From Callorhinchus milii (lineage: Eukaryota), in the NCBI RefSeq assembly GCF_018977255.1, contig NW_024704742.1:29328001-29392000 (forward strand): DNA of 64,000 nucleotides, written 5' to 3'. The notes below the pieces were generated by a model. That model saw nothing but the letters and a program-made list of their open reading frames with translations. It was not told the origin of the DNA and ran no database searches. A program made the position numbers and the translations under genes. Of the stretch, positions 1,046 to 63,865 are shown piece after piece (position 1 is the first letter of the stretch; each line of letters starts with the position of its first letter).

Positions 1046-1682
1046 TTATTTTTCTCCCGTCACCGTCGATTCTGCCTCTGTTTTGGACGTCAAAGGAAGG
1101 GCAATGGCCGACGGCGTGTTGACGACAACCCAGCGAGTCAAAGTCTTGCTGCCCTCCACAATTCGCTCCACTTCCTTGATCACGGGCAGGTTGTGCAGCT
1201 CTGCCCCCACCTTCCCTCTCTGCCCTTGCTGCCTCATCTCCGGTCCTTTGATGACCGCTGTGATGACTTGAGGAGCACTTTGGCCTCCTGCCTGCTGGGC
1301 GGGCACTGCTAGCCTCATGACCGGCGTGCCCCCCGCCACCGACACGGGGGACAGAGCTTGAATGGCTGTCGCCGCCCCCACCACATTAATGCCGCCGGAC
1401 GTAGCCAGGCCTGCCTTTGTCTGTAAGTGGCACTGGGCTATCTGTGCCACGGGGATGGTGATGATTTTGGTGGGCTGCATCGCGATTTTGTCGCCATTCT
1501 CTGCCGTGCCGGCGGGCACCATGGTAGGAATAGTCTGGATGACCACCTTCGGGGTCGAGCCAGTGGTGTTTGTACTGGTTATTACCGTGGAAACAGGATT
1601 CAGCGTCTGGACGGCCATCGTTGAAAACTTCTGCCCCGAGGAGGTCATGACGACAGGCACTTGCATTGCCACCCGTAAGGTT
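1046..1682 (-). CDS. ELF2: ELF2 last coding exon (R TLRVAMQVPVVMTS...KTEAESTVTGEK*)
   Basis: Matches the ELF2 C-terminus (RVAMQVPVVMTS, PKVVIQTIPT, ENGDKI.MQP.KIITIP, PSAIALP..KTE...EK*). TAA at 1046-1048. The acceptor is a CAGCAGCAG triplet, so the exon could begin at 1682, 1685 or 1688. Confidence 0.95.
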
Positions 1683-3584
1683 CTGCTGCTGGCAGAGAAA
1701 ACAAAAATTGACAAATTAGCAATAATTACCCATTTCCCTTCAGGTTTCGAGTTCCACTTACTGTGAAGTCTCATTCTTTTCTGGAATGCATATAAGACAG
1801 GTGCTTAATGTCAGCCTGACTCAGTGGGTAACCCTCTTTTCTCTAAGGCAGAAGGTTGTCGGTATAAAATATGATAAACTGCTAATAGCTCGTCATTCCA
1901 AGGGAAAAGGGTTCAGTGACAAGTTATGCTGAGAGGCAAGTTAAACATGCGTATAAATACATAAATGCGTATGCAATATTTTGAGATGACTGGCCAATCC
2001 CGTTGCCGGATGGAGCCTGAATGCTGGTGGCCGGGGCTTTATTTTTTCTAGTTATATAATAATCCTTGCATTTGATATTGCACTTTTCACGTCTTCGAGA
2101 CGTCTCAAAGCACTTCACAGAATACACTGTAAAGTGAATTGACTATATTTGTGGGCGAAACGCGGCAGCCAATTGCACATAGCAATGCCCCACAAACAGT
2201 CGTGGATTGAGTGACCAAATTATTATTGTATTTTTTTTTCATTTCATCAGAATTCTTACAGTCCAGAGATGGGCTCTCCCATCAAACTGTAACAGTAACT
2301 GTCAAGTGTATAAATAGTTTCAGCAATTCAGAAAAAGATTCCTAGGATGAAAGATAATATGGCTGACAAAACAACTAACCAAATAACATTCTACTGTGCT
2401 TTGGAAGTCCGAAACTCAAATCCATGCGAAATATGGGAGACCTGTTGATTTTACAGTATATACCAATGGGAGTTCGGGAGTCCTAATGCCAAGCTAAAAT
2501 TCATCCTCAGGATGCATGCACAAAGACAAATTTGTTTATCTCTACCTCAAGCTGATCCTTATCCAGGATTCATGATTGCTCCACCCAATTCAGATAATTG
2601 TTAATAGTAGTTAATAGTTTCAGCCTTTAATATTTTATTAGTTTTCCCTTTGAGTCGAATTATGTCTTTTTTTTCTCTCTCATATTCGCTTTTAGTCAGG
2701 TGGCCTATTCGCTTTAGTCAAGAGTTCTGGAACGTTACCCTGCTTGAGAGGCGCTATACAAGTGCAAGTTGTTGTTGTGTGCAAAACCTAATTACCAAAT
2801 CATGATACAATGTCAATACCGGGATTTAATAATAATAATTGTTTAATTTGATATAGCGCCTTATCTATCATGTCGTCGAAAAGTCTCAAAGCACTTCACA
2901 GGAATCTTACTAAGCGTAATGACCGTATAAGTTTATAGACGGACGTAGATTGTAGATTTCTCCCTTCCCCAGCCCAGGAATCAGCTGCCAATTGTGGTGT
3001 CACAACTGTTGCCTTAGTGCCTTTGAACATGCATTACATTGCAATAATTCATACCATCAGCGCACTGCCCCCTTCACATGAGACATTAAGTTCAGGCTTA
3101 CAAAGAGCAGTGCCACTTAGAAAGGCTGCAGCTGAAATCACTGCCTGAGGCAACTTCAGAATGATATCTATGCTTCGTGATAATCGCAGCTACACTGATG
3201 GGAGTCGAGAATTCTTTACTTGGGACAAATAAGCTCCAATTAAAAGCTTTTAAAATCTGATCTACTGTTTCCTACCAGGTATTCAGGGTGCAGTAACTGG
3301 GTGCACATTGGTACTGTGATATGCACCTTCCCCATAAAGGGAAACTATGGCTCTATTTATTATAAAATATAGAGACACACATCCCTTTCGGGTGGTGAAA
3401 GTGTTAAAATGCTGGAATTATGTGGAAACAAGATAAACCGGATTTTGGAGCTCATGGAATTAGCTTTTTATTAAAAATGAAACCTAAACAAAGTGATAAC
3501 ATGCCATTATTTATCATCCTCACATCCTCCACACAATGTAGCATTTAAGTCCACCAAATTGTGGACTGCTGGAACTTTTATGAT

Positions 3585-3880: not shown

Positions 3881-5216
3881 TTAACCTTGAAGAAATCCCT
3901 GTGCTCCTCTGACATATCACTTGACCCTCCAGGTTAGACACACAAACGGAGTTAACTCCTCCCACAGGCAGTTTCCAGTTTGTTTACTGCAAGGCAATAA
4001 ACCTGGCAAGATTCACAGAACTACTTCATCTCCAAAGCTAAGCAGCTGCCACGTTCCACCATAAAAAGTGCCAAATTTAAAAACAATTCAGATCAAAGGC
4101 CACAGGTCCATTTGTTCTAAGATTTTTTTTAAAAAACATCGAGTTTTCATGAGTACGGGTCATGGCAAGTTGCCCGCGCAAATCTGTTGCAACACATAAT
4201 CCTGGGATTCCCTTCAAGAGGTTTCAAGGCTTCTACCTACGCAAAGCTTTACTTGAAATTGTTTAACTAGAGAGAACAGAGTATCCCAAACGTAGGAAAT
4301 CCTCCACACGTCAGTGCACAGTGTGCATGAATTTCTTTCCTCTTAGTTTTACAAACTGGGGGGTAAAATCTGCAATAAAGTGAGATTTCCTCGAGTTAAA
4401 TAGGGAACATTTAATGATCACCAGCAGGTGGCACTCCCTCTCCACTTAGGTAGAATTGTTCTCTTGCAGCCTCATCCGACACCATTTGTTTTTTATATTT
4501 TGATTTTTTTTAATAAATTGGTTTTTTAAATGCGTTTCGAGTTTCTGGGGCAACTTTAATGTTCCTTTTTTTTTGGTCAATGTTTCCTGGGCTCGATCAA
4601 GCAGGTAGTGCCCTCCTTCCCAAGCTCGGAAATAACTTTTAAAGAGATCGTCAGCTTAGGCCTAGCTTTGGCATGAATTCTTCTCCCCTCCTTTCCAGTG
4701 AGCTGGAAGAGAACAAATCATCTTACCCAGAGAAGCAAGTGCCATCTCGTGGTAGTTATCAAAACTTTTGTTATTTAGCCCAAGGAAGGCTGTAAAATTA
4801 CCAAAATTTTGCCCTTGGTTTTACCCGAGTCTAGAAACCAGATTATATAAATCAGGGCTTGTTGAAACAGGTCCTGATGAAGTTTCCTGAAGTGGCACAA
4901 AGGCAGGAGTGAGAAGGTGGAAGCTGGGTGACTAGGTGACTAGCATTCTGTTCACTTTCGTGCTAGTTAAAAACATTGTATATTACCAATGGCTGGGTTC
5001 CAACAAAAGTGGTAAAGCCTTAACTAGAACCATATCCCCAAATAACGTGTCACAAGCACTAGAAAAGGAGGGCCAACTGAGTCTTTCAGCCCAGTTAGGT
5101 TCCTGAGCTATCCCACTGCACCACACAAGTTCCTCAGCTTTAGGCTGGTGTTCAACAAACCTCTCGTAATTGCATAGTTATTTAATGTAATACCCATGTG
5201 CCTGGGATCTACTAAC

Positions 5217-5597
5217 CTGGGAACAGTTGTGGTTATGACTGGAAGGGACGTTGTAGTCATATGAGACAGGATTCCACCTTGACCAACCGGTGAGACCTTC
5301 ACTGTTGCCATTTTGCCCAGCTTCACAACACTTTGCTGAGCTCCGCTCCGAGGACTTCTCGAAGCCGCCGTCGTTGTCTTTACCAATATGGACGAGGAGA
5401 TGCTGTCTGCAGAGATGGGAGTTGTCGCTACTGGGCTGCCAATGGCAGCAGCCAGCATTTCTGATGGGTAGGGATCTTGGCTAGTAGGGTCCACTTTCTC
5501 TTCGTCAATGATGATCAAGTTTTTGGGCATCTCCTTGAACTGATAGACCAATCGCTGTCCCTCTACCTTGGCCAGAATCCCTCTTTGGTAGTAATAC
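5217..5597 (-). CDS. ELF2: ELF2 ETS domain exon 2 plus Ser/Thr-rich linker ([26 protein letters not shown]...ITTTVP)
   Basis: End of the ETS domain [20 protein letters not shown]. Acceptor ctag, donor AG|gttagt, 381 nt, phase 2 to 2. Confidence 0.95.
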
Positions 5598-7039
5598 CTA
5601 GCCAGAACAACACCAGAGTTGAAAGCCATTGTGACTACACAACACATTTAGTCCAGCCTATAAACCTCACAAGAGACATGGGTAGATGTTTCCATTATTA
5701 ATTCCCCAACTAGTTTACGTTAAAGTGGAAACAAAGCGCTGACATCTCTTTGGAACTAACGGGTATCCACAAGCTGAGTCTGCATTCAAACAAGCTCTTT
5801 GATTCACTCATAAAGCAGCACTGTGGAAGCTGCCTCAGAGCACATGGCTCAAATCTAATCAAGGGTTGTAAAGCAAAGTGTTGATAGAATCGCTTTATTA
5901 GGTACTTGACACTTCGATTTTGTTACCTTGACATTTAACCCATTTTATTACAACTGCTGTTTGTACAGAGAAAAGCAAATGTAATAAAAGCTATGTAAAA
6001 ATGTTCCATCTCCCAAAAGCAATAGGTGACTAGCTACCACCTGTATTGCACTGGCACTTGAATCTTTATACAGAAAAACATAGCTTGTCCCAATTTTTTT
6101 TCTCACCACTGGCTTACACCTCTCTACTTCTTGTACAGTCTCTTCTTGCTGAGCTGTGAGTTCATGGGTTCTTTGCCCTGTGGTGCTCTGCCCAAGTGGC
6201 TATTGTTCTTGTATGAACCTGGGCAGTGAGTGGCAACAGACCACTTGACTGGAGAGGGTGTTACAGCTGACATCAACCCACTGGCTGCCACTCACATAAA
6301 TACACACACATAAACGGAAACACGTACACACACGTAAACAAGCACATTCACAGACGTAAACACACACACACATAAACACATACACAACCAGTAGAGGGTG
6401 GTGTAGTAGGAGCAGGCAATTAAGGGAGTGTTCCACTCCCATTTAGTACTGACTGAAACCAGCAAACTCAGCAAGGATTTGAACCAACGAGCTCCTGGTC
6501 CACAAGCTGCAGCTCTATCTACCGCACCATCAAGGCTGCACCACTATATGAGTGGCAAGCACTGTTCATTCGGTGCTTACTTACCTTCAACAGTTATCTT
6601 TATTATAAAGTTTGTATCATTGCAGAATGCAATTTTACAATAGCAAGCAGGGCTCTCCTGATGGCTCATTAGGTTAATGCACTTTGTGTCCCAGTACAAA
6701 GTCATACACAGTACAAATGCCCAGCAAATGCACAGTTTCCCAGTCTTCCCGGAATTTGCATTCCTCGGCCGAAAGGCGGCAATAGGCAAGGGCTTGGGAT
6801 AGACTTGGACCTTAGTGTCCTTGGGATGGGGGAAATAGAAGGAAATTTGCATGGATTTACACTCCCGCTCAATAATGAACTCTGTTGGAAAGTGCGTCCA
6901 CACATGTTTATATAGCACAGGCAGGCATCACGCAAGAACAGCAACTGGACTTGATTGAAATGGAAGAAAAGTGAAGGCATACTGCGAGGGTTGGCCAATA
7001 ACAATCACAGCCAGGACTGGACTCAGTAGTAAACAACTA

Positions 7040-13629: not shown

Positions 13630-16600
13630 CTGTGAAGTTAAGAGCAACAAACAATGAGCAAAGATCCTCCCTGAATTACACAACCTGTTATTTAGATGGA
13701 AATTGGCATTAAAAACCAACTTGGTTATTGTGACTGGTGAGACAATGAAATAGCAACTCCAAAAAGGATCATTCTGTAATCACTCTTGCTGTACAATCTA
13801 TGCTTGAAATATATACCGTATTTGTAAATGTGAATTAATACCACAGCTTGCACTTATTAAGCACCCTTCACGTAGGATAACCTCTAGGAGCTATTTACAA
13901 AGAAGGCATTGGACAGCATAATAATAATAACAATCCTTGCATTTAGTCTAGCACTTTATCACGTCGTTGAGATGTCTCAGCACTTCACAGCATATATTTT
14001 AAAGTGGATTGACTGTGTAAGTTGTGGATGAAACATGCATTTTTATGGGCAAGGAAGCAGAGAGACCACTGGTCACACAGAGAAAGTACGTCACCGGCAA
14101 TATCTTGCACGATCTGCTTTCTGAATATATGTAAGTCTGCCTCCAGCTCACTTGCAGCCAGACAACAAAAGGAAAGAAAACTCGACTTTCAGAGCAACTA
14201 ATCACGTTGAAACATTTCAAACCATTTCATAAAGCACAATCATCATGTGTAGTGATAGTGACTATTTTGTACAGGGGAAATGGAGCGCCCACATTATAGC
14301 CACGAACCCAACGGAACCAGCAATTAAGTGAATGACTAATTAATATGGAGGATTACGGCTAAGAGACCGAGAGAAACTGCCATGTCTTTTCAAATGTCCT
14401 GGAATTTGTATCCTTGACCTTGGTTTAAGTGTCATCCAAAAGATGGCACCTCGGACAATGTATCGTTCCCCAAACACTGCACAAAAATGTCAGCCTTAGA
14501 GTAGATTATGAGCTCAAAGTTCCTACGTTGGGCTTGAACCTACCAACCTTCTGACCCAGAGGCAAGAGTCTTACCAACTGAGTCAAGCTGATACCCAGGA
14601 GGTTGAGTTAGTGGATCTCAGTCAAAGGAGCAGTAGATTTGCTATATATTGCCCTCGTCATCTGAACTGGGGAGGTGAAAATCAACCACATTCCTCGCTA
14701 TCTAGTGCCCCATCTAGTAGAAAATCAGGACAAGATATCAATGAAGGCACAATTGGGTTTGACGATGATGATCCTCACAGTTCAATCGCCTGCCAACATC
14801 CAGGATCACACGTGATAAATGGCTTCTTACGAGCAGTACCAAAGAGAGTCTGGCTCCCGCCAGCACAAATTCAGCACCTCCTCAAGAGAAATAGCTTTCA
14901 AAGAATACGATGCACCTTTCCTTTTAAATAACCCAAATTAAAATATAGTGGTTCTCTAAGAAAGAGAAGTGGTTGAACCTCAAATCTTGTGCAACTTCCT
15001 TTTGAATGTAATTGGGAGTAATTCGGTTATATAACGGTTTGCAAGTATGCAACCCTTACATAAGGCTGCGGAGAAAAAAAAAACATTGAACAAACTTAAA
15101 AAGCCGCACGCTTTTTGGACCAATTGTAAAGCAGCATTTCACCGAATCTTTGCATAAACAGTGCATGTGAACAATCATTGATGTTTGGTCCCGTTTCCTG
15201 CCAAATCAGAATTGGACTAGATCCAGCGGTGACCACACCGCACTACACAGGAAACCACAATATTTCACACTTGGAACTGGAAGGTCCAAAAAGTACAGCT
15301 TCACCACAGTACTGCACAAGTCACATACTCCAAACAAAATAATTCAAGGGCGCAGCTGAACTGCTTCTCTCTGCCAGACTGTTACAGACAAACTGATGAT
15401 TTATTTGCTCTGGCTATTTTGATGCATATTAACCCAGCATCCAAACACAACACAAACCTTGCAAGATGAACTCACTATTGAAAAGGCAATTTAGATTTGA
15501 GACAAAAGGGTCCTGCGGAATCATGACAAATCTGAATGCCCACCCCTCCTGTAAACGTTTTAGCCGCATTTTCCTTCCACTGAGAATCGTCAACTCAGCT
15601 CAGCTGGTAGAACGCTCACTTCTGAGCCAGAAGGCTGTGGGTTCAAGCCCCAGCGAGGAATTTGAACTCAGAGTCCAGGCTGGCAGTCTAAAGTATTAGG
15701 GAAGTGTGTAATTGTCGGAGATGTCATCCTTTAGAAGACACATTCACTTAAGGTCCCACCTACCTTTTCAAGAGCATTAAATGTCCCATGATACAGTTTG
15801 AAAAAAGAAGCATATTTCTCCCAGAGCCCTGGCCAACAATCCTCCAGCTCAGTGGTAGCCAAACCATGGACTGCGAGCCAGAAGTGGCCAACAGGGCCAT
15901 TAAGAAGTGGCCCGCCGAACATTCGCACTAGTCGAGGTGAATCCATTTTAAATCAATGTTTTGTTTCGAAGTGTTTTTTCTTGATTTATGGCATAACATT
16001 TATGGCATAAATCAAGAAATATTCAATCAAAAAAATGTATTTTGTTGGCCGACCAAAAAGGTTGCTAGATGTTCCTCATCATCTTTAACCAAAGCTCATT
16101 TCTCTAGCAAACGAAATGCCTAATAAAAAAATTATACATATACAAGATGGATTTGTACATGTTTGTAAAAATTACTCTGAAGGGGTATTGAGGTATGTTA
16201 AAATTATAAAAAATGTTAACTCCTAAAAAGCAACTATCCAATTTGTGGTAATCCATGCAGGTCAGACCGTTCCTTTAAACTTCCAACACCCATGCGTACA
16301 CAGAGCTTACGTGCACAAATACATTTTAAAATGGATGCTCGGAGGAAGAAAATACACAAATTATAGTTGCTACACATACAGCCCTCATATCCAGTCTCCA
16401 TCCTGCTTCTCATCAAAGTGGCAGGAATGAAATGCAGAGTTTAATTGCTACATGTACACAAAATGTAAATTGCAGACACATCCAGCAGCTTCCCCAACTC
16501 CACTCTACCACCGAACCTAATATTTAACAAAAGATATACTATATTTACTATTTCAAAAATAGGAAGCATAGGAAAAGAGAAGAAAAATACTTTTACAATT

Positions 16601-16927
16601 AGGCTTTTTTACTTCATCTTGCACACAGAGGGAGAGGTGAAATTATAGTGTAAGCTGTAGCTTTAAAAAGAAACTGCCGAAAGAATAGCAAACAGACAGA
16701 ATAAGTAGATCAAACATGTCTCAAAAAACAAAATAATGATTCTTTCTTTCAACTGATCAAGAAATGATATTTGCCACATTTGTTTTCCAAATAATTGGAT
16801 GTAGCTGCATAAGGAGAAACTACAAATAATCAAAATTATTCCAAGTAATGCAAACCTACATACAAACTGTCACTCAGCCCTTACAAATTCACATTAATTT
16901 TCAAATATCTCCAATATTGGATATTAC

Positions 16928-17806
16928 CTGAGCCAGTAGAAAAGTGCAGAAATATTTGGGAGAGATTTTGCAGAACTCTTTACAAATCTGTAGATAATCG
17001 AGGAGAAATTTGTTAAATTTTGAGGGAAATTGCGGAGGGTGGTATTGAGATGCATTTTGCTGCTAACCTACAATTTTTCCTCTTTTCTCATTTTCAAAAA
17101 TGCTTCATGCTCAGGAATAAGCTCCTTCAGGTATGTATTACAAAGCTGTGATGGTGTTGTGATAGTCCCTCCCTGTTTCGTGTACTTGCATAGAAACTCT
17201 TGGAAGGCAGGAGCCTTTTCAAGCGGTTTGTCTGCTCTAGTCAAACAAAGTCCAATATGAATTCTTGCCTCTCCATAGGTGGTGCAGTGGCTCTAGAGAA
17301 GCAGGTTGTCAGAGCAACTTGTCTTTGAGGTCCAGATCTACCTAAAAAGGAAAAAATAAAAATGAATCTTCATGATCATTTGTCGCTAGAAATGTTCTGT
17401 CTATTTGATTTTGTTTGCTGTGGTTGTTTTATGTGCTTTTAAAATTCAATCAAAAAGGGAGATTAACTTTTGTAATCATATAAATTAAGATTTTCTTTCA
17501 AAATTAAAGTGAAAGCAAACAATGATACATTTTCATTTAATGTTATATATATCAAAAGTATTTTACCTTCTTTTATTTTCTTTATTGCCACTGCCTTGTG
17601 TTCACGTTTCCGCTTCCGCAAAAATTCACCGGACGTGCGATCGGAGCCGCTCCGGCCACGGTAGTGGCATCGAGCAAACAGCGCGAGGGGCCTGGGGCAC
17701 TGTGGAAAAGTTTGTACCCAAGGAAGCCGGTGTAGCGGGTTTGTAGCGGGCGGCGCCATTGTGGAGGAAAATGCGGTGGTTTGTCCGCACTTTTCTATTG
17801 GCCCAG
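16928..17806 (-). mobile_element. Internally deleted hAT DNA transposon with a CGGBP1-like transposase remnant (copy 1)
   Basis: TIRs CTGAGCCAGTAGAAAAGTGCAGA / TCCGCACTTTTCTATTGGCCCAG (20/23 match). Flanking 8-mers GATATTAC / GATATTAA (7/8, hAT-length TSD). Minus-strand translation QRQVALTTCFSRATAPPMERQEFILDFV, then after a frameshift ADKPLEKAPAFQEFLCKYTKQGGTITTPSQLCNTYL, resembles the CGGBP1 C-terminal half. Confidence 0.8.
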
Positions 17807-18129
17807 GATATTAACGGCCCATATCGCTAGCATTTTCATTTTCATCACAGGTGAGAGGTAGTTAGAAAGCAACTGAGAGAAAGAGAAATTGGTTCCTTAA
17901 GTCAAAGCAGCAAATGAGGGAGAGCCAAACTGTGGAGGTCTCCTGGATCAATTCTGGCAATATCCCTTGATACTCCTCTTCATCATGGCATTGCACCAGA
18001 GTTACACAAGGTATTCAAACTGCTTCAATTTTAACACAGCTTATGTGCAAGATGAGAAAACGATTCTTCTTGCAAAGAGTAATAAGAATCTGAAATGTAC
18101 TACAACATCACCCTTCATGCAATATAATA

Positions 18130-18501
18130 GTCCTGTAGTTTAGTGGTTAAAGCACTCGCCTTGCAAGCAAGCGACCTGGGTTCGATTCCCGACAGGGCGA
18201 AATATTGGGCAAGTGTCCTTACTGCACAGGCCTCTATTTACCTAGTAGTAATTAGGAACACAGTTGTTAGTCGATTGGCGAATCGCTTTTCCGTGAGTAA
18301 TAATTCCTTCNAAAAAAATAATAAATTGGTCACTTTAATTCACAACTGTTTGTGAACAGTGCTGTGCACAACTGCCTGCCATGTTTCGCCCACAAAGTAT
18401 ACAGTCAATTCACTTTACAGTACATTCTGTGAAGCAAGTTAGATGTCTCAAAGACGTGATAAGGCGCTATATGAAATGCAAGGATTATTATTATTATTAT
18501 T
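18130..18501 (+). mobile_element. Full-length SINE, same family, lying between the two hAT copies
   Basis: Head GTCCTGTAGTTTAGTGGTTAAAGCACTCGCC, B box GGTTCGATTCC, tail (TTA)n. Confidence 0.85.
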
Positions 18502-18707: not shown

Positions 18708-21316
18708 CTGGTCAATAGAAAAATGCGGCTACAACCCCCGTCTGTAACAAACTCGCCATAAATGTAGTTTCTGGCCCGCGGGCCGCTCACGCTGTTTACC
18801 TGATATCACTGTGGGTGGAACCACTCCGGACGCGCATGCACAGTGCGGCGCAAGAGACAAATGGGCTTCACTCGAAGGCCCCGCTGCTGTGATTGTCTGC
18901 GTGTCTCTACGTTAGTGTCTACGTCTGTCCTATATGTGTGTGTGTTTATGAATGTCTCTGTGTGAATGTGTGTCTCTGTCTGTGTATGTATGTATCTTTG
19001 TGTCTACGAGTGTGTATGTGTGTGGCTGTGAGTGTGTCTCACTCTCTGTGTCTCTTTGTGTGTCTCTGAGTGTGTGTCTCTGTGTGTCTGAGTGGGTGGG
19101 TGTGTATCTCTCAACAACAACTTGCACTTATATAGCGCCCTCCACGCAGGGTAGCGTCTAAGAGCGCTTAACAGTGGCGGAGCCTGCCTCCAAGTCGGGG
19201 GGGAAGTGGCTGTAAGCATGGTCAAAGAGGAAGGTCTTCAGGCGGGACTTGAAAAAGGGGAGAGAGGGTCAAGGCGGAGGGATTGAGGAAGAGAGTTCCA
19301 GAATTTTGGAGTGTAGTGGCTGAAAGTGTAACCTCTGATGGTGGAGTGGAGAGTGCAAGGAACAAGCAGGAGGCCGGTGCCAGTTCGAGCAGATGTGACA
19401 TGTGGTGGATTAGGAAGTGAGGAGGTCGGAGAGGTAGTGAGGTGTCAGGGAATTAATGGATTTAAACACAATAGTGAGTAACTTGAAGTCGATCCATTCA
19501 GCGATGGGGAGCCAGTGGAGCCTGGCCAGAACTGGTGAGATGTGGGTACGGAGTTTGGTCCGGGCCAGTATGCGGGCGGCAGAGTTTTGAATGAGTTGCA
19601 TCTTGTGAATGGTAGAGCTGGGAGACCGACCGGCAAAGAGTGCATTGGAGTAATCCAAGCGGGAGGTAATAAACGCATGCGCAAGGGTTTCAGCTGCATT
19701 TGGGATAAGGTACAGTCAGAGGTGGGCAATGTGGCGGAGGTGGAAGAAGGCGGTCCTAGTCAGGGACCCGATGGGGGGGGAGGAAGGACAGTTGGGGATC
19801 AAACCGGACGGCTAGATTGCACATTGATTTGGTGAATCTGAGGGAGAGCCCAGGGAGGTTGAGAAGTTTAGATCCGCAGGAGTGAAGACGTTGACGGGTG
19901 CCAAGGAGTATGGCTTCCATCTTGTCCATATTCAACTGCAGGAAATTTATACTCATCCAGGCCCTGATGTCTGTCAGACAAGCAGATAGAACATCGGTGG
20001 ACCTGGAGTCAATGCTGGAGGAGGCAAAGTAGATTTGTGCGTCATCTGCATACATGTGGAAGTTTACCCCATGTCTGCGGATGATATCGCCCAGAAAGAG
20101 TATATAGGTGAGGAAAAGAAGAGGCCAAGGATGGAGCCGGGGTCACCTGCAGGTGACCGGGCGGAGACGGAAGGAGAAACCATTTGCTGAGATGAAATGG
20201 AGGTGGTTGGTTAAGTAGGACTCGAACCATGCAAGTGCGGTCCCACTAAGGCGGATGAGGGAGGAGAGATGGTGGAGGAGGATGGCATGGTCGACTGTGT
20301 CAAACGCGGCAGAGATCCAGGAGAATGAGGCAGAAGGAGCCCTGGTCACAGATAGAGAGGACGTCATTTGTGACTTTGACAAGCGCCGTCTCTGTGCTGT
20401 GGACAGAGCAAAAACCAAACTGCAGGGGCTCGAGGAGGGAGTGGAGGGAGAGGTGTGACCAAGTTGAGCTGCAACATTGCGATCCAGGACTTTGTCAAGG
20501 AAGGGTAGGTTGGAAATGGTAGGGTGAGAAATTAGAGGGATCGAGGGTGGGTTTTTGAGGATGGGTGTGATAACAACTGTTTTCAAGGGGAGTGGAACAG
20601 AGCCTGAGGAGAGAGACTGATTGACTGTGTTGGCCAGCAGTGGCGAGAGGAGGGGGAGTTGACTGACCAGCAGCTGGGTGGGGAGGGGGTCAAGGCAACA
20701 GGTGGTGAACTTTATACAGGTGATCATGGTTGAGAGGGGGCAAAGGGGTGTAAGGAGGGAGGACGATGCAGTCAAGTGGATGTTTTCAATTTTCTGGGAC
20801 CTCTTTGCACTTGGCGCTTGATGTGACACACACAAATACACACACTCACAGACACAGAGACACCCACACACACTCAGAGACCCAGAGAGAGAGAGAGACA
20901 CACACACACACACACACACACATAGTCAAGAGACACAGACTCTCGGTGTCTGTGAGTACGTGTCTCTCTCTCGGTGTCTGTGAGTATGTGTGTCTCGCTC
21001 TGTGTCTCTGTGTGGTGTCGGCGCTGAGAGGCAGGAGGTGGTGAGCTCCTGTAGCCTCACTGGTGTCGTTCTCCCCCACAAAAAAATGGCAACCCAGTTT
21101 TTGCTAAAGAAGCAATTAATCTTTTTCTGCAAGAATCTAATATTTGTTATTTCCTTCTGTTTAGTTTTTATCAATAAAATTAAAAAATGTAAAATGTACC
21201 TCAATAGCACCAATCAATCCCTGCAAATTTTAGCAAAGCCCTCCGCAATTTCCTAAGAGATTGGCAAAACACTCTGCATTTTGGGCAAAAATGTCCGCAC
21301 TTTTCTATCAGCCCAG
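18708..21316 (+). mobile_element. Second related hAT element (copy 2, opposite orientation) with a C-terminal transposase remnant and nested LINE and microsatellites
   Basis: Ends (c)CTGGTCAATAGAAAAATGCGG and TGTCCGCACTTTTCTATCAGCCCAG match the copy 1 TIRs; shared subterminal GGAAATTGCGGAGGG. Plus-strand fragments VDVFNF / SLHLALDV / GVGAER..VVSS resemble the hAT C-terminal dimerisation region. The element interrupts a SINE. Confidence 0.7.
19112..20765 (-). mobile_element. 5'-truncated L2/CR1-clade LINE with decayed reverse transcriptase ORF2
   Basis: Frameshifted RT motifs [63 protein letters not shown]; 3' tail ending in (TTG)n at 19112. Confidence 0.9.
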
Positions 21317-23315: not shown

Positions 23316-24076
23316 CAAGCTGACAATCTCTTTGGATGTATTGTATATGGAACTCCTCCCAAGGATACCAATATACAGTCAATTCACTTCACAGTATATT
23401 CTGTGAAATGCTGAGATGTCTCCCAAGACGTGATAAGGCACTATGCCGAATGCAAGGATTATTATTATTATTATTTGCTTGGCTAAGAATCTCAGCAAAT
23501 GCATACCACATATTCACCAAAGAGGACATGTAACATTTATTACGACTTGCTGGCCAGTTGGGGACAATACAGCGAGATAAATAAATAAACACGTCAGTTG
23601 CACACAGCCTTAAGCCATTTTCGCTATGCACAAGGTGTACAGAAGACATAAAAACCGAGTAGTTTTTCTTCGACGTGTTTGCTTCCTCGGGTACGTTTTC
23701 CAAGCCCGTGCGTGCGATGGGTTTGGAAGCTCGATTTTAAAACCCTGACTTCGCGCGTACGGTACTTACTTGTACATTATACCCGTGGGACGTTAAGATT
23801 ACTTCTGCTCTGAACTAATCAGCTTCGTGGTTGTGCGCTTTTCTTTGTCTCGCTATGCACTTGACCTGGTAGGGAGGGAGGGAGGGAGGGAGGCCATCCG
23901 CTGACAGTCAGCAGCTGAAAACTCTTCAGGAAACCAAACCAAACCACTAAAATCGTACTGGAAGTGAACCATTCGCATTCAGAACAGAAACAATAGAGTG
24001 GCTGCAGCATCTCGATCCCTCTCACGGTCTTTGCTAAACCTACAATTGAACTTTATTTCATGATTGTTTTTTTTTT

Positions 24077-24351
24077 GGGGGGGGTGTGGGGGGGGGTGTG
24101 GGGGGGTGTGTGGGGGGGGGGGGGGGGGTGTTGGGGGGGGGGTGTGGGGGGGGGTGTGGGGGGGGGGGGGGGGTGTGGGTGGGGGGAGCAGACGGGCTGG
24201 GGAATGGGAATCCAGTTTAGCATTTTAATGTGGCCTCGTATCTCGCGTGAAGCGCAGTGCGCGACTCTGCACTGAACCGAAGAGGAGAGAGCAACCATCA
24301 GCAGGTCGGAGGATAGAGAGAGAGAGACAGAGAGAGAGAGAAAGAAAGAGA

Positions 24352-24397
<46 letters not shown>

Positions 24398-24400
24398 AAA
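24077..24400. repeat. G-tract array (GnTGT) at 24077-24186 followed by (GA)n/(GAAA)n microsatellite at about 24312-24400
   Basis: Directly visible. Confidence 0.95.
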
Positions 24401-25962
24401 GAGCAACTGCGGCCCCATTGCACTATTCCCGGGTGCAGCGGCGCTCGCTCCCCGGCTTCCCTCCCCAAAGCCATTCCACCGAGGGAGGGGGGGAGGGGGG
24501 GGGGGGAGCCCCGGGGTAAGCAGGAAGAAGCCTTTGTATCGCCTCCCCCTCCGCGTCTCCTCCCCCTTTCCTCCGCCGCCACCATTCCCGTTATTGCTGC
24601 GTCCCTTTCCCCCCCTCCCCCCTCCCCCCCCCCCCTCCCTCGCTGGTCAGCGGCAGCTCAGGACAGGCCATTCAACTTCCGTGTTTACAGCCCCTCCCCC
24701 TCCCCCTCCCGCTGCCGCTCGCGCTCTCCCCCCACACACACACACACAGACACACACAGAGCATTCCAACCCGGCCCGGGCTCGCGTTCCATTCTCGCTC
24801 TCTCCCCGTCCACCCCCCGCGGGGCTCGCGCGCGCTATCCGGACCGCGTTCCATCGCCCCTCTCCCCCCCCCCCCCTCCCCGGGACCTCACTCAGCCCCA
24901 GTCCCTGTCAATCACCCGCGCGCCGCTTCCGCCAACATCAAACCTGGCGCTGCTGCACGGCACCGGGGCAGTGCCGGGCCGGGCAGGGCAGTGCCAGGCA
25001 GGGCAGTGCCGGGCCGGGCAGGGCAGGGCAGTGCCGTGCAGTGCAGAGCCGCGCCGCTCCGCTCAGCGGAGGGAGGAATTTCTGACTCGAAACGCAAAGC
25101 CACAAGGGCAGGACTCGAGAGAGAGAGAGAGAGAGAGAGCTTTGGGACAGGGCGAGAGAGGAAGAAAAGAGGAGGAGGAGGGAGGAGGGAGGAGATGCTG
25201 AGGGGAGGAGTGGCAAAGAGAGAGTCCCACTACCAATTATTAATTCGTTCGAAATATATTGATACATATATATATATGTGGTTTTTGAACTTAAAAAAAA
25301 TGGGCGCGGTAGCGTTCTTTTATTTACGTGTGAAAAGACTGGGAGGGGGGGGTGTGGGGGGGGGCATTAACGTGCCAAGACGTATGGGAGGGAGGGGGGG
25401 GAGGGGGGAGGGGGGAGGACAAGAAGCCACCAGCGCACTTCCTGGTTCCGCAGCTATTAATGTAAAGTAACGGCGAGCGAAGCCTCACACAGTCACTCAC
25501 ACACACACACACAGAGCAGCAAATCAAACCACACCACACGCTGCCCCTCTCTCTCTCCCTCTCTCCCTCCTCTCTCTCTCTCACACACGGTACTCTGCAT
25601 ACAGTAGTTTCCTTTTATTTTGAAGCCAACCATCTTCAACGTGCAACGAAACACACAACTTGATTTCCTTCCTTCCTTTCTCTTTCCTCTCCTCCCCCCC
25701 ACACACACACACACACACAAAGCAGGAAGAGAGCCCCTCTCGCCATGCAGGTTGCCAACAAGGTGCTCACTTCCTGATCTCTCTTCCCCTTTCCCTTCTT
25801 TCCTTACAGTAACGGGACTGGAGCAGACAGTTGCATTCCCCACCTCCCGTCTCTCCACACGGCGGCGGGGGGGGGGTGGGGGCTGACTCTCTGGGGGCTG
25901 TGTGTGTGGTGGGGGGGGGGAGTGGGGGCTTCGCAAAAGTTTGTTGGTCTGGCGGGTTTTAC

Positions 25963-26020
25963 CGGCTTGGATGAGGAGGTCCAGTTGGTTTTTCCGACCC
26001 TCGTGAAGTGAAGTCGCCAT
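25963..26020 (-). CDS. ELF2: ELF2 isoform B (NERF-1 type) alternative first coding exon, MATSLHEGRKNQLDLLIQA
   Basis: Resembles human ELF2B N-terminus MATSLHEGPTNQLDLLIRA. Good Kozak context aagATGG, donor G|gtaaaa, 58 nt, phase 1 (compatible with exon 13513-13629), inside a CpG-rich region. Confidence 0.93.
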
Positions 26021-26189
26021 CTTTCTCCGCAAACGGCAGCAGCAGCAGCTTCCCAGAGAGGGGGGGGGGGGGGGGGAGAGCTGATCGTATCACTGCGCAC
26101 CCACAGGAAATCTTCACAACACAACGCACAGCGCCGTATCCGTCCGCAAAAGCCAACACTTGCACCGTGTGTGCACAGAGACCCGAGTT

Positions 26190-26757
26190 ACACACATACA
26201 CAGACACACATACACACACAGACATACACACACATACACACAGACATACACACACAGACATACACACAGACATACACACACAGACATACACACATACACA
26301 GACATACACATACACACACAGACATACACACACATACACACACACACAGACACACAGACATAAATACACACACACCCACACATACACACACACACATACA
26401 TACACACACATACACACATACATACACACACATACATACACACACACACAGACATACACACACATACACACAGACATAAATACACACACATACATACACA
26501 CACAGACACACACACATACACACAGACACACATACACACACATACACACAGACATACACACACACCAACACACATACATACACACCCACACACATATACA
26601 CACATACATACACACACACACCCACACACATACATACACACACCCACACGCATACATACACAGACATGCATACATACACACATACATACATACACACATA
26701 CACATACGCACACACAGGCAAACACATACATACATACAGACATGCATACACACACGC
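26190..26757. repeat. ~570 bp compound (CA)n/(CATA)/(CAGA) microsatellite
   Basis: Directly visible; it generates the HT/CV-repeat ORFs in the track. Confidence 0.97.
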
Positions 26758-28515
26758 ACTTTCACACAACTCCTCCATGTTTTTCATTCCCTTTCCTATA
26801 AAAAGCTCCACAATCGATCTGATCCCTTGTTTTTTTTTCCTTCCCTTCTCTCTCTCTCTCCCCTCCATCTCTCCTGACTGTAACATTAAACGGAGGAGAG
26901 AGGGGGTCGTTGCTTTGTCCTCTCTCTCTCCCTCTCTCTAATGCCCACAAGAAGATGCACTAAAAGAACAGATCCGACACCAGGAGTCAGACTCCGCGGT
27001 GCAAACAGAGGCGGAGAACACACAGCGCGCGGTTCAGATCTCCGGTTATCGGTGCGGGATCCCCTCCCACAGAAAGTCAGGGGTTCTGTTAACACCAACA
27101 GCCGCGCCTCCGCCTGGTCTGCAGATCAGATCGGATCGGATCGGATCGGGTGCGACGTCCACACGTTGCATTCGGTTTTGCAAAGTTCTCGAAATCGAAG
27201 CGGAGCAAAGACGCTTTTCCAGCTCACGCTGTGTGGGGACGACTAAGGCGACGAGAGAGAGAGAAAAAAAAAGACCCCAACAAATGCAGGAGCTCCAGGA
27301 GTCAACGGGAGTCCTGATATTTGCTGCAGCAACAACAACAACAACAACAACAACAACAAGATTCCATTTATAGAGAGCGCCTTTCAGGTCGGGAGGACGT
27401 CCCGAGGCGCTGAAACTCTCAGGCAATGCGCGGGTGCGGTCTGGATCACTTGAACCGCAGCAGAAGGTCTCACGTTACTCGCAGAAACTGGGATTTTGCA
27501 ACAACATCAAGCGAAAGGGGCTCAGGTCGGGAGTGGCACGAAACCTTCCCGAATGTTTGGTTCGATTCGAAGCATAAAACTAACGACTAAAAGACCCGAA
27601 GGCAGTTTCGTGGTTGGAATGAATGGCGAAGCGGGTCCCAATGCAAACACTTTGGACGGATCGCCAATTTAATTTAAAGGGGCTGTCGTCATTGTGTGAT
27701 GAACACGGCCTGGGATTGTAAAGCTGTCACCATGCCACCAACCAACGGGGCTGCACAAAAACATGTCCTTGCTTGCTTTATTTATTTACTTTCATTTATT
27801 TATTCATTTGACAATTACTTCGGCTTCTGTCGTCATTTCGGCCAACTCGGTGGCAAGTAACCCGATGCCTAATGCGGAAATAATAAAACGATTTTTTGGT
27901 CGTGTCTCAGGACATTAATATCCAGGAATCGCTTTTATCAGATTACCCGTGTTAATCAGAGCTTCCTCGCCGTGTGCACAGTAAGGGATACTGCACACTG
28001 GTAAGACACATCAGCATATAACGTGTAAGAGAGCAATGCCTAACACACACCATCGGGGAACAGAAGTTGACGCAAGACGATATCTTAATTTTCTTTCAAC
28101 ACAGCCATTCGTGCATATGTTTGCATAACGTCTATCCCGTTAGCCATTTAACCCAATAGTTATGCAGACGAGGCCATGTCTGGCCGTAATTGAAATTGGA
28201 TGATCAAAAGACTTGAAAGGATACTTCAAAACTGTCTTTTTGTTTAAAAAAAGTGCTCAAGTTCCATTTTCTTCTATTGAACCGCCCCACTCAAAACTCA
28301 ATTAGTACAGCTCAAGAGAACTGGGACTGGAGATTTTGCACAGGGAAGATTTTACAACATTCATGTTAGGAAATATACCACACAAAGGCACTATTTAAAA
28401 AAAACTGCAACCACAGAAAATGAGGGCAAGCAACCACTTGCAGTTATAATCTCAATGAGTTCTGAAAAAGGTATAAGTTGCTTAAACCTTGAGGTTGTGG
28501 TTTTCTGTGGTCATT

Positions 28516-57436: not shown

Positions 57437-57755
57437 GGAGTCCTGTAGCTCAGTGGTTAGAGCACTCGCTTTGCAAGCGAGAGACCTGAGTTCAATTCCA
57501 GACAGAGGGCGAAACCTTGGGCAAGTTTCCTTACTCCACACGCCTAATAATAATCCCTCCAAAACCCAAAACAATAATAAATTGGTCATTTTCAATCTAC
57601 GACTGTTTGTGGGACATTGCTGTGCGCAATTGGCTGCCGCGTTCGCCCACAAATATACAGTCAATTCACTTTACAGTGTGTTCTGTGAAGCGCTTTGGGA
57701 CGTCCTCCTGACGTGAAAAGCGCTATATCAAATGCAAGATTATTATTATTATTAT
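57437..57755 (+). mobile_element. Full-length tRNA-head, Deu-domain SINE (SINE2-1_CM-like), representative copy
   Basis: Head GTCCTGTAGCTCAGTGGTTAGAGCACTCGC with A box and B box (GTTCAATTCC); central TGTGGGACATTGCTGTGCGCAATTGGCTGCC; L2-like tail; (TTA)n. Confidence 0.85.
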
Positions 57756-57946
57756 AATACAGCCCTCACCCACGACTACACTGACCCAAAACTGTGATCT
57801 CAAATCCCGATTTGGGCTTGAATTGACAACCTTCTGACCCAGAGACCAGAGTGCTACCAACTAAGCCACAGTCACACACAAATGAACTACACACTGATGT
57901 CACATCAGTGAAGTTTTCATGCACATCATCAGTGATCATCAACATT

Positions 57947-63343: not shown

Positions 63344-63652
63344 GTCCTGTAGCTCAGTGATTAGAGCACTCGCCTCATAAGCGAGAGTCCTGGGTTCAAT
63401 TCCCAGCAGGGGGAAACCGTGGGCAAGTTTCCTTACTCCACACGCCTGATAATAATCCCTCAAGAAACAAAACAATAAACTGGTCACTTCAATCCATGAC
63501 TGCTTGTGGGACACTGCTGTGCGCAATTGGCTGCCACTTTTCACCCACAAATATACATTCAATTCACTTTACAATATATTCTGTGAAGCGCTTTGTGACA
63601 TCTAGAAGACACGAAAAGCGCTATATCAAATGCAAGGATTATTATTATTATT
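63344..63652 (+). mobile_element. Full-length SINE, same family
   Basis: Head, Deu domain and tail. Confidence 0.85.
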
Positions 63653-63865
63653 AATTGGAAAAATAAACCACTCAATGCACCCATCTGGAAATCCCAGAGA
63701 TACCGATTGTTGGAACAGAATGTGCACTCTCTCCCTGGATGGACGTGTCCTGCTTACCTAATTCAGGAAAGTATTAGCCACAGGGTTGGCAAGAGCCAAG
63801 GCTTAGAAACCCCAGAGTGTGAGTCGGGGTACTGCTGGAGGTTAACCAGCAGTATTCAGGGCAGA

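Follow-up and report, generated by a model that had tools for sequence, protein, structure and literature searches.

The 64,000-nt stretch of the genome of the chimaera Callorhinchus milii considered here (contig NW_024704742.1, positions 29,328,001 to 29,392,000; hereafter the window) contains an 879-bp unit at 16928-17806, the coding strand of which is the minus strand. This unit is very probably one dead, non-autonomous copy of an old family of hAT-superfamily DNA transposons whose transposase possessed a CGGBP1-like head. A first-pass annotation of the window, made from the nucleotide sequence alone, had described the unit in similar terms, as the fossil of a hAT transposon carrying an intron-containing, CGGBP1-like transposase.

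The terminal inverted repeats (TIRs) of the unit are CTGAGCCAGTAGAAAAGTGCAGA (16928-16950) and the reverse complement of 17784-17806, which are identical at 20 of 23 positions, and a search for inverted repeats across 16500-18300 returned these ends as the sole pair (arms 16927-16950 and 17784-17807, 24 nt, 88% complementary). On the minus strand, 17784-17806 represents the 5′ end of the element (CTGGGCCAATAGAAAAGTGCGGA) and matches the 20-nt core of the family TIR exactly, and 16928-16950 represents the 3′ end and carries the 3′-end signature of the family (...GCAGAAATATTTG). Immediately outside the TIRs lie the 8-bp sequences GATATTAC (16920-16927) and GATATTAA (17807-17814), which agree at 7/8 positions and represent the left and right copies of a target-site duplication (TSD). 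Both the 23-bp repeats and the near-identical flanks had been recognized, with the same limits, in the first-pass annotation.

That annotation had proposed searching the source genome for further copies, and the TIRs do delimit a dispersed family. Allowing up to two mismatches, the 20-nt TIR core is found 1,548 times in the 991-Mb genome (797 matches on the plus strand and 751 on the minus strand), whereas a reversed control sequence is found on neither, and BLAST of the element against its own genome yielded at least 75 matches with the best 40 of 176 candidates scored. Pairing of TIRs at 90 genomic loci gave 31 left/right end pairs, 362-2,911 bp apart, in which the flanking 8-mers matched at 8/8 positions in eight pairs, 7/8 in 10, 6/8 in four, and 5/8 or fewer in nine. 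Duplications of 7/8 or better therefore accompany 18/31 pairs, whereas control 8-mers taken 10 bp further out reach even 6/8 in only 1/31, so that the 8-bp TSD expected of a hAT element holds across the family. The 36 flanks of these 18 pairs give the duplicated target consensus GYYATRAS, to which the left flank of the window copy also conforms; positions 4-5 are AT in 36/36 and 34/36 flanks, respectively, position 2 is T in 19 and C in 12, and position 7 is A in 28 and G in eight. The preferred target of hAT elements is nTnnnnAn, with which the family target agrees, adding a central AT.

In a hAT transposase such as Hermes, DNA binding is expected at the N-terminus and dimerisation at the C-terminus, on either side of an RNase-H-like core that contains a large insertion, and the element generates 8-bp TSDs. 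Copies of the present family fall into size classes that result from differing internal deletions, the most complete being 2.6-2.9 kb. In copies that have kept the 5′ part of the gene (e.g., L015, L010, and L004), exon 1 reads M.KRFCKSREEAKGQ...PSDRIVLYPDDLYEEGGQLFCHVCCHTIDHVRKYTIDEHMKSRKHCERKAAAIKKK and is followed by a conserved GT...AG intron; exon 2 in the long copies L008 and L019 reads GGSGPQRQLALTTCFSRATASSMERKEFILDFVRCLTRADIPLEKAPAFQEFLCKYTKQGGTIPTPSQLRNTYLKELIPEHEAFLKKHVEDTDVYLFLDETTDSSG..., ...KVLAVATDNASYMIKAFN..., ...CIAHLLNL..., ...YIWLPVSTADVERLFSVYSDLLKDNRQSLTEENIKSLLMLKFNQH. The core motifs LFLDETTD, VATDNASYM, CIAHLLNL, and VERLFS are readable in these long copies, catalytic residues within the putative RNase-H-like DDE core being assigned only presumptively, by motif. 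A single gene in one orientation runs there from the N-terminal domain through the DETTD/DNASYM core to the hAT dimerisation domain. Pfam identifies Dimer_Tnp_hAT (PF05699) in L019 at 3042-3224 (23.0 bits against a cut-off of 21.4, E = 6.9e-5), a region deleted from the window copy, and the homologous proteins P0022, P0027, and P0029 contain both DUF659 and Dimer_Tnp_hAT above cut-off (44-48 bits for the latter). The sea-urchin protein P0027 (594 aa) aligns through residues 97-559 to L008 (30% over 473 aa, E = 4e-44), through residues 538-587 to L019, and through residues 13-68 to exon 1 of L015. The assignment to hAT made at first pass is thus borne out by the 8-bp TSDs, the GYYATRAS target, and the hAT dimerisation domain and DUF659-type core of the longer copies.

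The gene was interrupted by an intron that is still readable in the window copy (17342-17566, minus strand; GTAAAA...TTTTTAG), where the donor AAG/GTAAAA has its G at 17566 and the acceptor TTTTTAG/GT its G at 17342, an interval of 225 nt. Matches to exon 1 and exon 2 adjoin in homologous proteins (e.g., residues 32-78 and 80-131 of P0023) yet are separated by ∼230 bp of DNA and occupy different frames, which argues that the interval is an intron; the in-frame 225-nt intron predicted previously, with these same splice sites, is thereby supported by collinearity with homologues. In an alignment of eight copies, the GT is kept in five of the seven copies that cover the donor and the AG in seven of eight. 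A further conserved interval of ∼60 nt, CG/GTAAGTGC...ACATTTTCAG/GAAAT, is found upstream of the start codon in family copies such as L010 and L015 (alignment columns ∼609-675) and has been lost from the window copy; it looks like a small putative intron in the 5′ untranslated region. With respect to contigs of public sequencing runs, a 158-nt contig of a presumed-RNA run matches exon 2 of copy L091 (G000:C3) exactly from the predicted acceptor onwards (601-603), preceded by 35 unrelated letters, and a second contig, from a different run, begins at the same base of L091; this is a weak hint that the L091 acceptor has been used in a chimeric transcript. Numerous other contig joints on L091 link repeat ends and derive from other copies.

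What the window copy retains and has lost was read from its alignment with the seven other copies. Along the minus strand, 5′ to 3′, the 5′ TIR is followed by GC- and CpG-rich subterminal DNA of ∼175 bp (17607-17783), a deletion of ∼400 bp, the last 40 nt of exon 1 (17567-17606), the intron, ∼245 nt of exon 2 (17097-17341), a deletion of ∼1.6 kb, a 3′ subterminal non-coding region that can be aligned with the corresponding ends of other copies (16951-17096), and finally the 3′ TIR. The 5′ deletion has its junction, ...GCGGAAGCGGAAA/CGTGAACACAAGG, near 17606/17607 (within 17604-17610); other copies match positions 1-685 and 700-879 of the element query with ∼430 extra bases between. This deletion took the ATG and the whole C2H2 zinc finger, leaving the tail of exon 1 (...EHKAVAIKKIKE-G). 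At the larger junction (17090-17100) the window copy reads ...GCATTTTTGAA/AATGAGAAAAG where longer copies go on ...GAAGAAACATGTTGAGGACACGGATGTGTACTTGTTCCTGGATGAAACC...; there is short TTTTTGAA/TTTTTAAAAA-like microhomology at the site, the breakpoints of other copies differ, and the transposase body that is gone comprises the catalytic core and the dimerisation domain. The exon 2 remnant encodes a linker and the helical DNA-binding domain (...EFILDFV / LTRADKPLEKAPAFQEFLCKYTKQGGTITTPSQLCNTYLKELIPEHEAFLK) and is interrupted at ∼17247/17248 by a 7-bp gap relative to the seven other copies, which corresponds to the single frameshift recorded in the first-pass annotation.

The translations quoted in that annotation are present in the window, namely ...RKRKREHKAVAIKKIKEG in the open reading frame (ORF) at 17463-17810(-), then GRSGPQRQVALTTCFSRATAPPMERQEFILDFV up to a stop codon, and ...LTRADKPLEKAPAFQEFLCKYTKQGGTITTPSQLCNTYLKELIPEHEAFLK in the ORF at 17068-17292(-), but not everything that was read as coding is so. 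Its exon 1 is coding within 17567-17606 alone; the preceding residues (MAPP...SGEFLRKRK) are read from the GC-rich 5′ subterminal region, which the ∼400-bp deletion has joined to the exon tail. The open frame that precedes ...EHKAVAIKKIKE (YPGPIEKCGQ...MAPPATNPLHRLPW...SGEFLRKRK) is thus a translation of non-coding DNA, as is the tail ...MRKEEKL, which belongs to 3′ non-coding sequence beyond the second deletion. With two internal deletions and a frameshift, the window copy cannot encode anything functional, and its earlier description as a non-autonomous fossil stands. No other genomic match spans the element end to end among the best 40 of 176 BLAST candidates, which suggests that this double-deleted form did not amplify.

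Decay extends to the family at large. A genome search with the 224-aa ORF of L008, in which all 130 candidates were scored, gave 108 matches, most with stop codons, and no intact or autonomous transposase among them; open frames around the matches reach 270 aa at most, so that the autonomous full-length partner sought at the suggestion of the first-pass annotation was not found in this set. Similarly, a search with P0003, a 147-aa UniProt gene model that lies on one copy, gave 71 matches from 147 scored candidates, many with stops. Divergence was measured over a shared 523-bp core in 30 copies, a biased sample made up of the window copy and the 29 most similar to it, as Kimura two-parameter distance from the majority consensus; it ranges from 0.048 to 0.106 (mean 0.070), and the window copy lies at 0.049 substitutions per site. 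Two stop-free matches to the transposase core at 34-35% identity were also detected on small contigs (G000:C429:5110-5721 and G000:C400:63074-63691; open frames of 261-263 aa), and these could represent a different, possibly better-preserved hAT family, or a host gene.

The likeness to CGGBP1 resides in the N-terminal unit of the transposase. In an exhaustive phmmer search of 1.84 billion representative sequences, P0003 gave 206 hits at E ≤ 1e-3, with 37 at E ≤ 1e-10, and the 15th best was P0015 (44% identity, E = 2.7e-14), whose 90% cluster includes CGGBP1 of shrew, yak, possum, woodchuck, and baboon. Amniote CGGBP1 was reached by this search together with a cluster look-up. Word-indexed searches of protein sequences had yielded matches from Callorhinchus or sturgeon alone, whether the query was L015 exon 1 (3/10 candidates), P0003 (5/17), or the sturgeon protein P0034 (3/50). 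By BLASTP, shrew CGGBP1 (P0168, Sorex araneus, 167 aa) matches P0003 (39% over 137 aa, E = 3e-24), exon 1 of L015 (35% over 62 aa, E = 2e-10), and, in the helical half only, the window ORF at 17068-17292(-) (20/47 identities, 43%, pairwise E = 3e-9); the last result reproduces with a mammalian protein the similarity to human CGGBP1 that the first-pass annotation had proposed. A tblastn search of the window with P0008 gave 48% over 71 aa (E = 7e-12). One of the copy-derived gene models is named by NCBI ‘LOW QUALITY PROTEIN: CGG triplet repeat-binding...’.

Residues C27, C30, H45, H51, and P94, which represent the zinc ligands and a proline of the DNA-binding domain, are near-invariant in 67 homologues. 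The residues regarded as key in CGGBP proteins are the two Cys and two His of the finger, a Leu at −2, and two prolines in the Hermes-like domain (PMC8097297), and all of them are present in family copies, which read QLFCHVCCHTIDHVRKYTIDEHMKSRKH and ADIPLEKA...GGTIP. In the window copy the finger has been deleted, the first proline is kept (KPLEKA) and the second is changed (GGTIT).

The GCGG/CCGC motifs of the subterminal regions, which had been considered plausible transposase binding sites, are distributed differently at the two ends. In the window copy the 5′ subterminal region, non-coding though open in reading frame, has a GC content of 0.60 and 9.5 CpG per 100 nt, against 0.33 and 0.7 internally, and includes CCGCTACAAAC twice. 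In a set of 24 elements of more than 700 bp, the first 200 nt at the 5′ end have a GC content of 0.56, with 5.7 CpG and 1.8 CCGC/GCGG motifs per 100 nt, compared with 0.41, 1.8, and 0.5 in the interior, and base composition alone could explain part of this enrichment; GCGG is found 66 times and CCGC 40 times, with recurrent TTGCGG/ATCGCGGAA/GTGCGGAAA and CCGCTACAAAC. At the 3′ end the bias is one of strand. The last 200 nt of 24 elements contain 34 CCGC against a single GCGG, 31 of the 34 being CCGCA, and 32 CTGCA against three TGCAG, an excess that is the expected remainder of CpG decay of CCGCA; one CCGCA is left in the window copy (GCGG on the plus strand, 17032-17035). Such a strand-oriented repeat strengthens the binding-site proposal, and the CGGBP-like head of the transposase may have recognized oriented CGG-containing subterminal repeats. 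For four hAT-encoded CGGBPs, motif matches have been reported in the subterminal regions of their own elements (PMC8097297). In copy L003 (1501-3126), a unit of ∼40 bp (GGGGCCCCGCTACACACCTGTACTGTACACACCGTGTGCT-like) that includes the CCGCTACA motif is repeated in tandem ∼7 times in the 5′ subterminal part.

Several results weigh against the interpretation as a CGGBP-type hAT fossil. The flanks agree at 5/8 or fewer positions in nine of the 31 TIR pairs, possibly through decay, mispaired ends or rearrangement, and the TIR has T as its second base (CTGGG...), where the usual hAT end consensus, YARNG, has A. The copy-number and divergence figures derive from similarity-biased samples of best matches. 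DUF659 in the 224-aa ORF of L008 scores 23.6 bits, under the curated cut-off of 34.7, and no contig joins across the predicted intron among those of four public runs compared with copy L091, none of the runs being on record as RNA. Pfam detected no relevant family in P0034, in the N-terminal models P0003, P0004, and P0005 derived from copies, or in the three ORFs tested from the window, which agrees with the report that Pfam has no model detecting CGGBP1 (PMC8097297). A PDB sequence search found nothing related (best E = 0.51). When the AlphaFold model of P0003 (predicted local distance difference test score 89, predicted template modelling score 0.55) was used in a Foldseek search, nothing was obtained at E ≤ 0.001, the best matches being U1/SF3A-type zinc fingers, with the BED finger of ZBED1 at E = 6.7; VIA-align with the same model gave U1/matrin-type fingers (Z 5.1-5.8) and generic helix-turn-helix domains (Z 4-5). 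Hermes appeared in neither of these fold-search lists, and there was no confident BED finger.

Other explanations have to be considered alongside these results. One concerns the short ORFs derived from other copies, which encode the zinc finger and helical domain and end where CGGBP1 ends. On this reading CGGBP-type hATs would also have colonised the cartilaginous fishes, and one or more of these ORFs would represent a further, independent domestication into a host CGG-binding factor, which is quite unlikely; the only hints are the gene models that sit on copies and the contig that departs at the exon 2 acceptor. Were it the case, it would parallel amniote CGGBP1 and the 62 CGGBPs of the coelacanth.

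It is also quite unlikely that the family is the sister of, or directly descended from, the hAT lineage that was domesticated as amniote CGGBP1. The high rank of the amniote CGGBP1 cluster among the hits to P0003, the 39% identity over 137 aa and the same spacing of zinc ligands speak for such a relationship, but a maximum likelihood tree of the N-terminal unit speaks, weakly, against it. The tree contains 91 rows and 142 columns, drawn from the domain-spanning hits ranked 1-100 of the P0003 phmmer search (lower-ranked hits being left out) together with six named cluster members, and has Shimodaira-Hasegawa-like approximate likelihood ratio (SH-aLRT) supports only; many of its deep forks are weak (67) and not resolved. 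The five Callorhinchus models form a clade of their own (99), the neighbours of which are two unnamed sequences and a teleost clade (91) comprising tuna, whitefish, and salmon, whereas the mammalian and rattlesnake CGGBP1 proteins group (97) with the coelacanth protein P0049 (634 aa, LOC102354807) and a tuatara protein named CGGBP1, near which sturgeon, mormyrid, and other coelacanth sequences are also placed. The family therefore appears to be a cousin within the CGGBP-type hAT group and not the nearest relative of the domesticated lineage. The earlier statement that the element belongs to the lineage that gave rise to CGGBP1 accordingly holds in a broad sense, but not in the narrow one, the amniote proteins grouping with a coelacanth hAT protein away from this family. 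Many independent domestications have been argued for (PMC8097297), which likewise tells against direct descent.

It is very unlikely that the host has put the dead window copy to new use, for instance as a regulatory element within an intron, or as a cryptic exon, of the ETS-family gene that probably surrounds it on the same strand. An Ets-domain exon at 5108-5647(-) and a GC-rich island at 24-26 kb suggest that the element is probably intronic and in sense orientation, its acceptor and donor are intact, and Frith (2022, PMC9004415) describes hAT19 fossils in amniote ancestors and exapted hAT19 fragments in tetrapods. Set against this, the divergence of the window copy is at the low end of the range among its 29 nearest copies and gives no clear sign of constraint.

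A host origin, in which the segment would derive from a domesticated CGGBP-like gene as a pseudogene or fragment and its inverted repeats would be incidental, is extremely improbable. Short gene models in Ensembl/UniProt and NCBI do sit on copies (P0001-P0006), and the contig of the presumed-RNA run leaves the genome exactly at the exon 2 acceptor of L091 (position 601), but TIRs with an 8-bp TSD precisely enclose the coding remnant, all of the matching genomic copies examined are located in the same TIR-bounded element, the matches to P0003 are numerous and many contain stops, and the window copy has neither ATG nor zinc finger. A domesticated host CGGBP gene would be single- or few-copy, with an intact frame and no transposon ends, whereas the locus is multi-copy, frameshifted, truncated, and bounded by TIRs and TSDs. 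Hardly more credible is capture of a CGGBP-like gene fragment by a non-hAT or unrelated TIR element (transduplication), which would suit the lack of a catalytic domain in the window copy and termini that match other subfamilies at only ∼71%, against 85-89% for the core, since the 2.6-2.9-kb elements L032 and L056 have the same TIRs and 8/8 TSDs, L008 and L019 join the N-terminal domain to the core and hAT dimerisation domain in one gene, and the lower terminal identity fits the high CpG content of the termini.

Under the preferred interpretation, that of a decayed CGGBP-type hAT family, the ancestral element was ∼2.7-2.9 kb in length and ended in TIRs of 20-23 bp (CTGGGCCAATAGAAAAGTGC); its subterminal DNA was GC-rich on the 5′ side and contained oriented CCGCA repeats on the 3′ side. 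The transposase, probably ∼590 aa judged by homologues of 575-594 aa, was encoded by two exons around the 225-nt intron. Exon 1 specified a C2H2 zinc finger, C-x2-C-x14-H-x5-H, and exon 2 a helical DNA-binding domain, a probable DUF659/RNase-H-type core (DETTD..., ...VATDNASYM..., CIAHLLNL), and, at the C-terminus, the hAT dimerisation domain. Taken together, zinc finger and helical domain are the unit that amniotes retained as CGGBP1. The ends, 8-bp TSDs, family, gene structure, and homology are apparent from the sequence data themselves. By analogy with established hAT biology, the N-terminal CGGBP-like domain would have bound the CGG-containing subterminal repeats, and the element would have moved by cut-and-paste with an 8-bp staggered cut at the target. 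Internally deleted copies such as that in the window may have arisen by faulty gap repair and would have been movable only in trans.

As to the surroundings of the element, the exon at 5108-5647(-) encodes the C-terminal end of an Ets domain (Pfam Ets E = 1.1e-4, under cut-off), with a further stretch at 1046-1804(-), and the GC-rich island (24000-26000, GC content 0.60) lies ∼19 kb upstream of the Ets exon on the same strand; the hAT fossil is probably in an intron of an ETS-family gene, in sense orientation. A reverse-transcriptase fragment of the long interspersed nuclear element (LINE) type is found at 19756-20925(-) (RVT_1 E = 1.8e-6, just under cut-off, two adjoining open frames), and an imperfect (TG/CA)-rich microsatellite at 25900-26950 gives rise to artefactual ORFs of 150-300 aa (CVCV.../HTHT...) in several frames. 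Short interspersed repeats are abundant in the genome, flanks of unrelated loci matching dozens of window sites at 70-85% (e.g., 18346-18500, 2058-2221, 57579-57759, and 63477-63654). A TIR-like end, CTGGTCAATAGAAAAATGCGG, is present at 18708-18730, and a fragment at 21097-21316 (...CCGCACTTTTCTATCAGCCCAG) is 65-74% identical to the 3′ subterminal region and TIR of the family. A second intact element at 18708-21316 was considered and rejected, the flanks being different (TATACTGC and CTTATCAC) and there being no transposase similarity between the ends, which probably represent the remains of one or two related, older elements.

CGGBP-type hAT transposons and their link to CGGBP1 have already been published (Yellan et al. 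2021, PMC8097297). The CGGBP1 domain model matches 29 of 824 RepeatMasker hATs, mainly hAT-19 (13/16), and dozens of independent CGGBP domestications have been described, and the bound motifs match the subterminal regions of the elements (PMC8097297). According to PMC4350176, no vertebrate lineage lacks hAT elements, and DNA transposons are scarce in the elephant shark. No mention of the present family was found in the paper listings searched or in PMC8097297 (main text and one supplement), and the family may well be catalogued already in Repbase or Dfam. The fossil shows that the CGGBP-type branch of hATs, known from coelacanth, crocodile, teleosts, lamprey, insects, and fungi, was once active in a chimaera genome too, and the family is clearly described by its TIR, GYYATRAS target, two-exon gene, and oriented CCGCA subterminal repeats. 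Decayed transposon copies also explain short proteins annotated as ‘CGGBP1-like’ or ‘uncharacterized’ in the species, and the ‘MAPP...’ stretch is a caution that an open frame inside a deleted element may be translated non-coding DNA. Beyond such annotation the significance is small; the window copy, though well preserved as a fossil, is an ordinary example of a transposon type already known.

Ac/Ds of maize and other pairs of autonomous and deleted hAT elements include deletion derivatives with independent breakpoints, in which the TIRs and subterminal repeats are kept and permit mobilisation in trans. The present family resembles Ac/Ds in its internal-deletion derivatives with differing breakpoints and differs in its TIR and target consensus and in that no autonomous partner was found. 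Its closest parallels are the hAT-19 elements with a CGGBP-type N-terminus (e.g., hAT-19_Crp and hAT-13_LCh), which, like it, combine a hAT enzyme with an N-terminal zinc finger and a DNA-binding domain (described as Hermes-like) matching CGGBP1, carry CGG/CGC subterminal motifs, have left many truncated, intron-containing derivatives, and are patchily distributed among taxa (PMC8097297). The present family comes from a chimaera genome and is placed in the hAT19 class by homology to CGGBP-type proteins only. In P0049 of Latimeria chalumnae, too, the N-terminus resembles CGGBP1 and a hAT transposase-like body comes after it (DUF659 E = 0.0033, under cut-off), but this protein is much nearer to amniote CGGBP1 (SH-aLRT 97) and has an open frame of 634 aa, against no more than 270 aa in the family. 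Amniote CGGBP1 itself shares with the family the C-x2-C-x14-H-x5-H finger, the Leu two residues before the first Cys, the IPLEKA...FL...GG.IP...QL..YL pattern, and a collinear order of domains; in amniotes, however, it is encoded by one host gene that stops once the DNA-binding unit is complete, whereas in the family the same unit heads a transposase that is multi-copy, bounded by TIRs and TSDs, and decayed.

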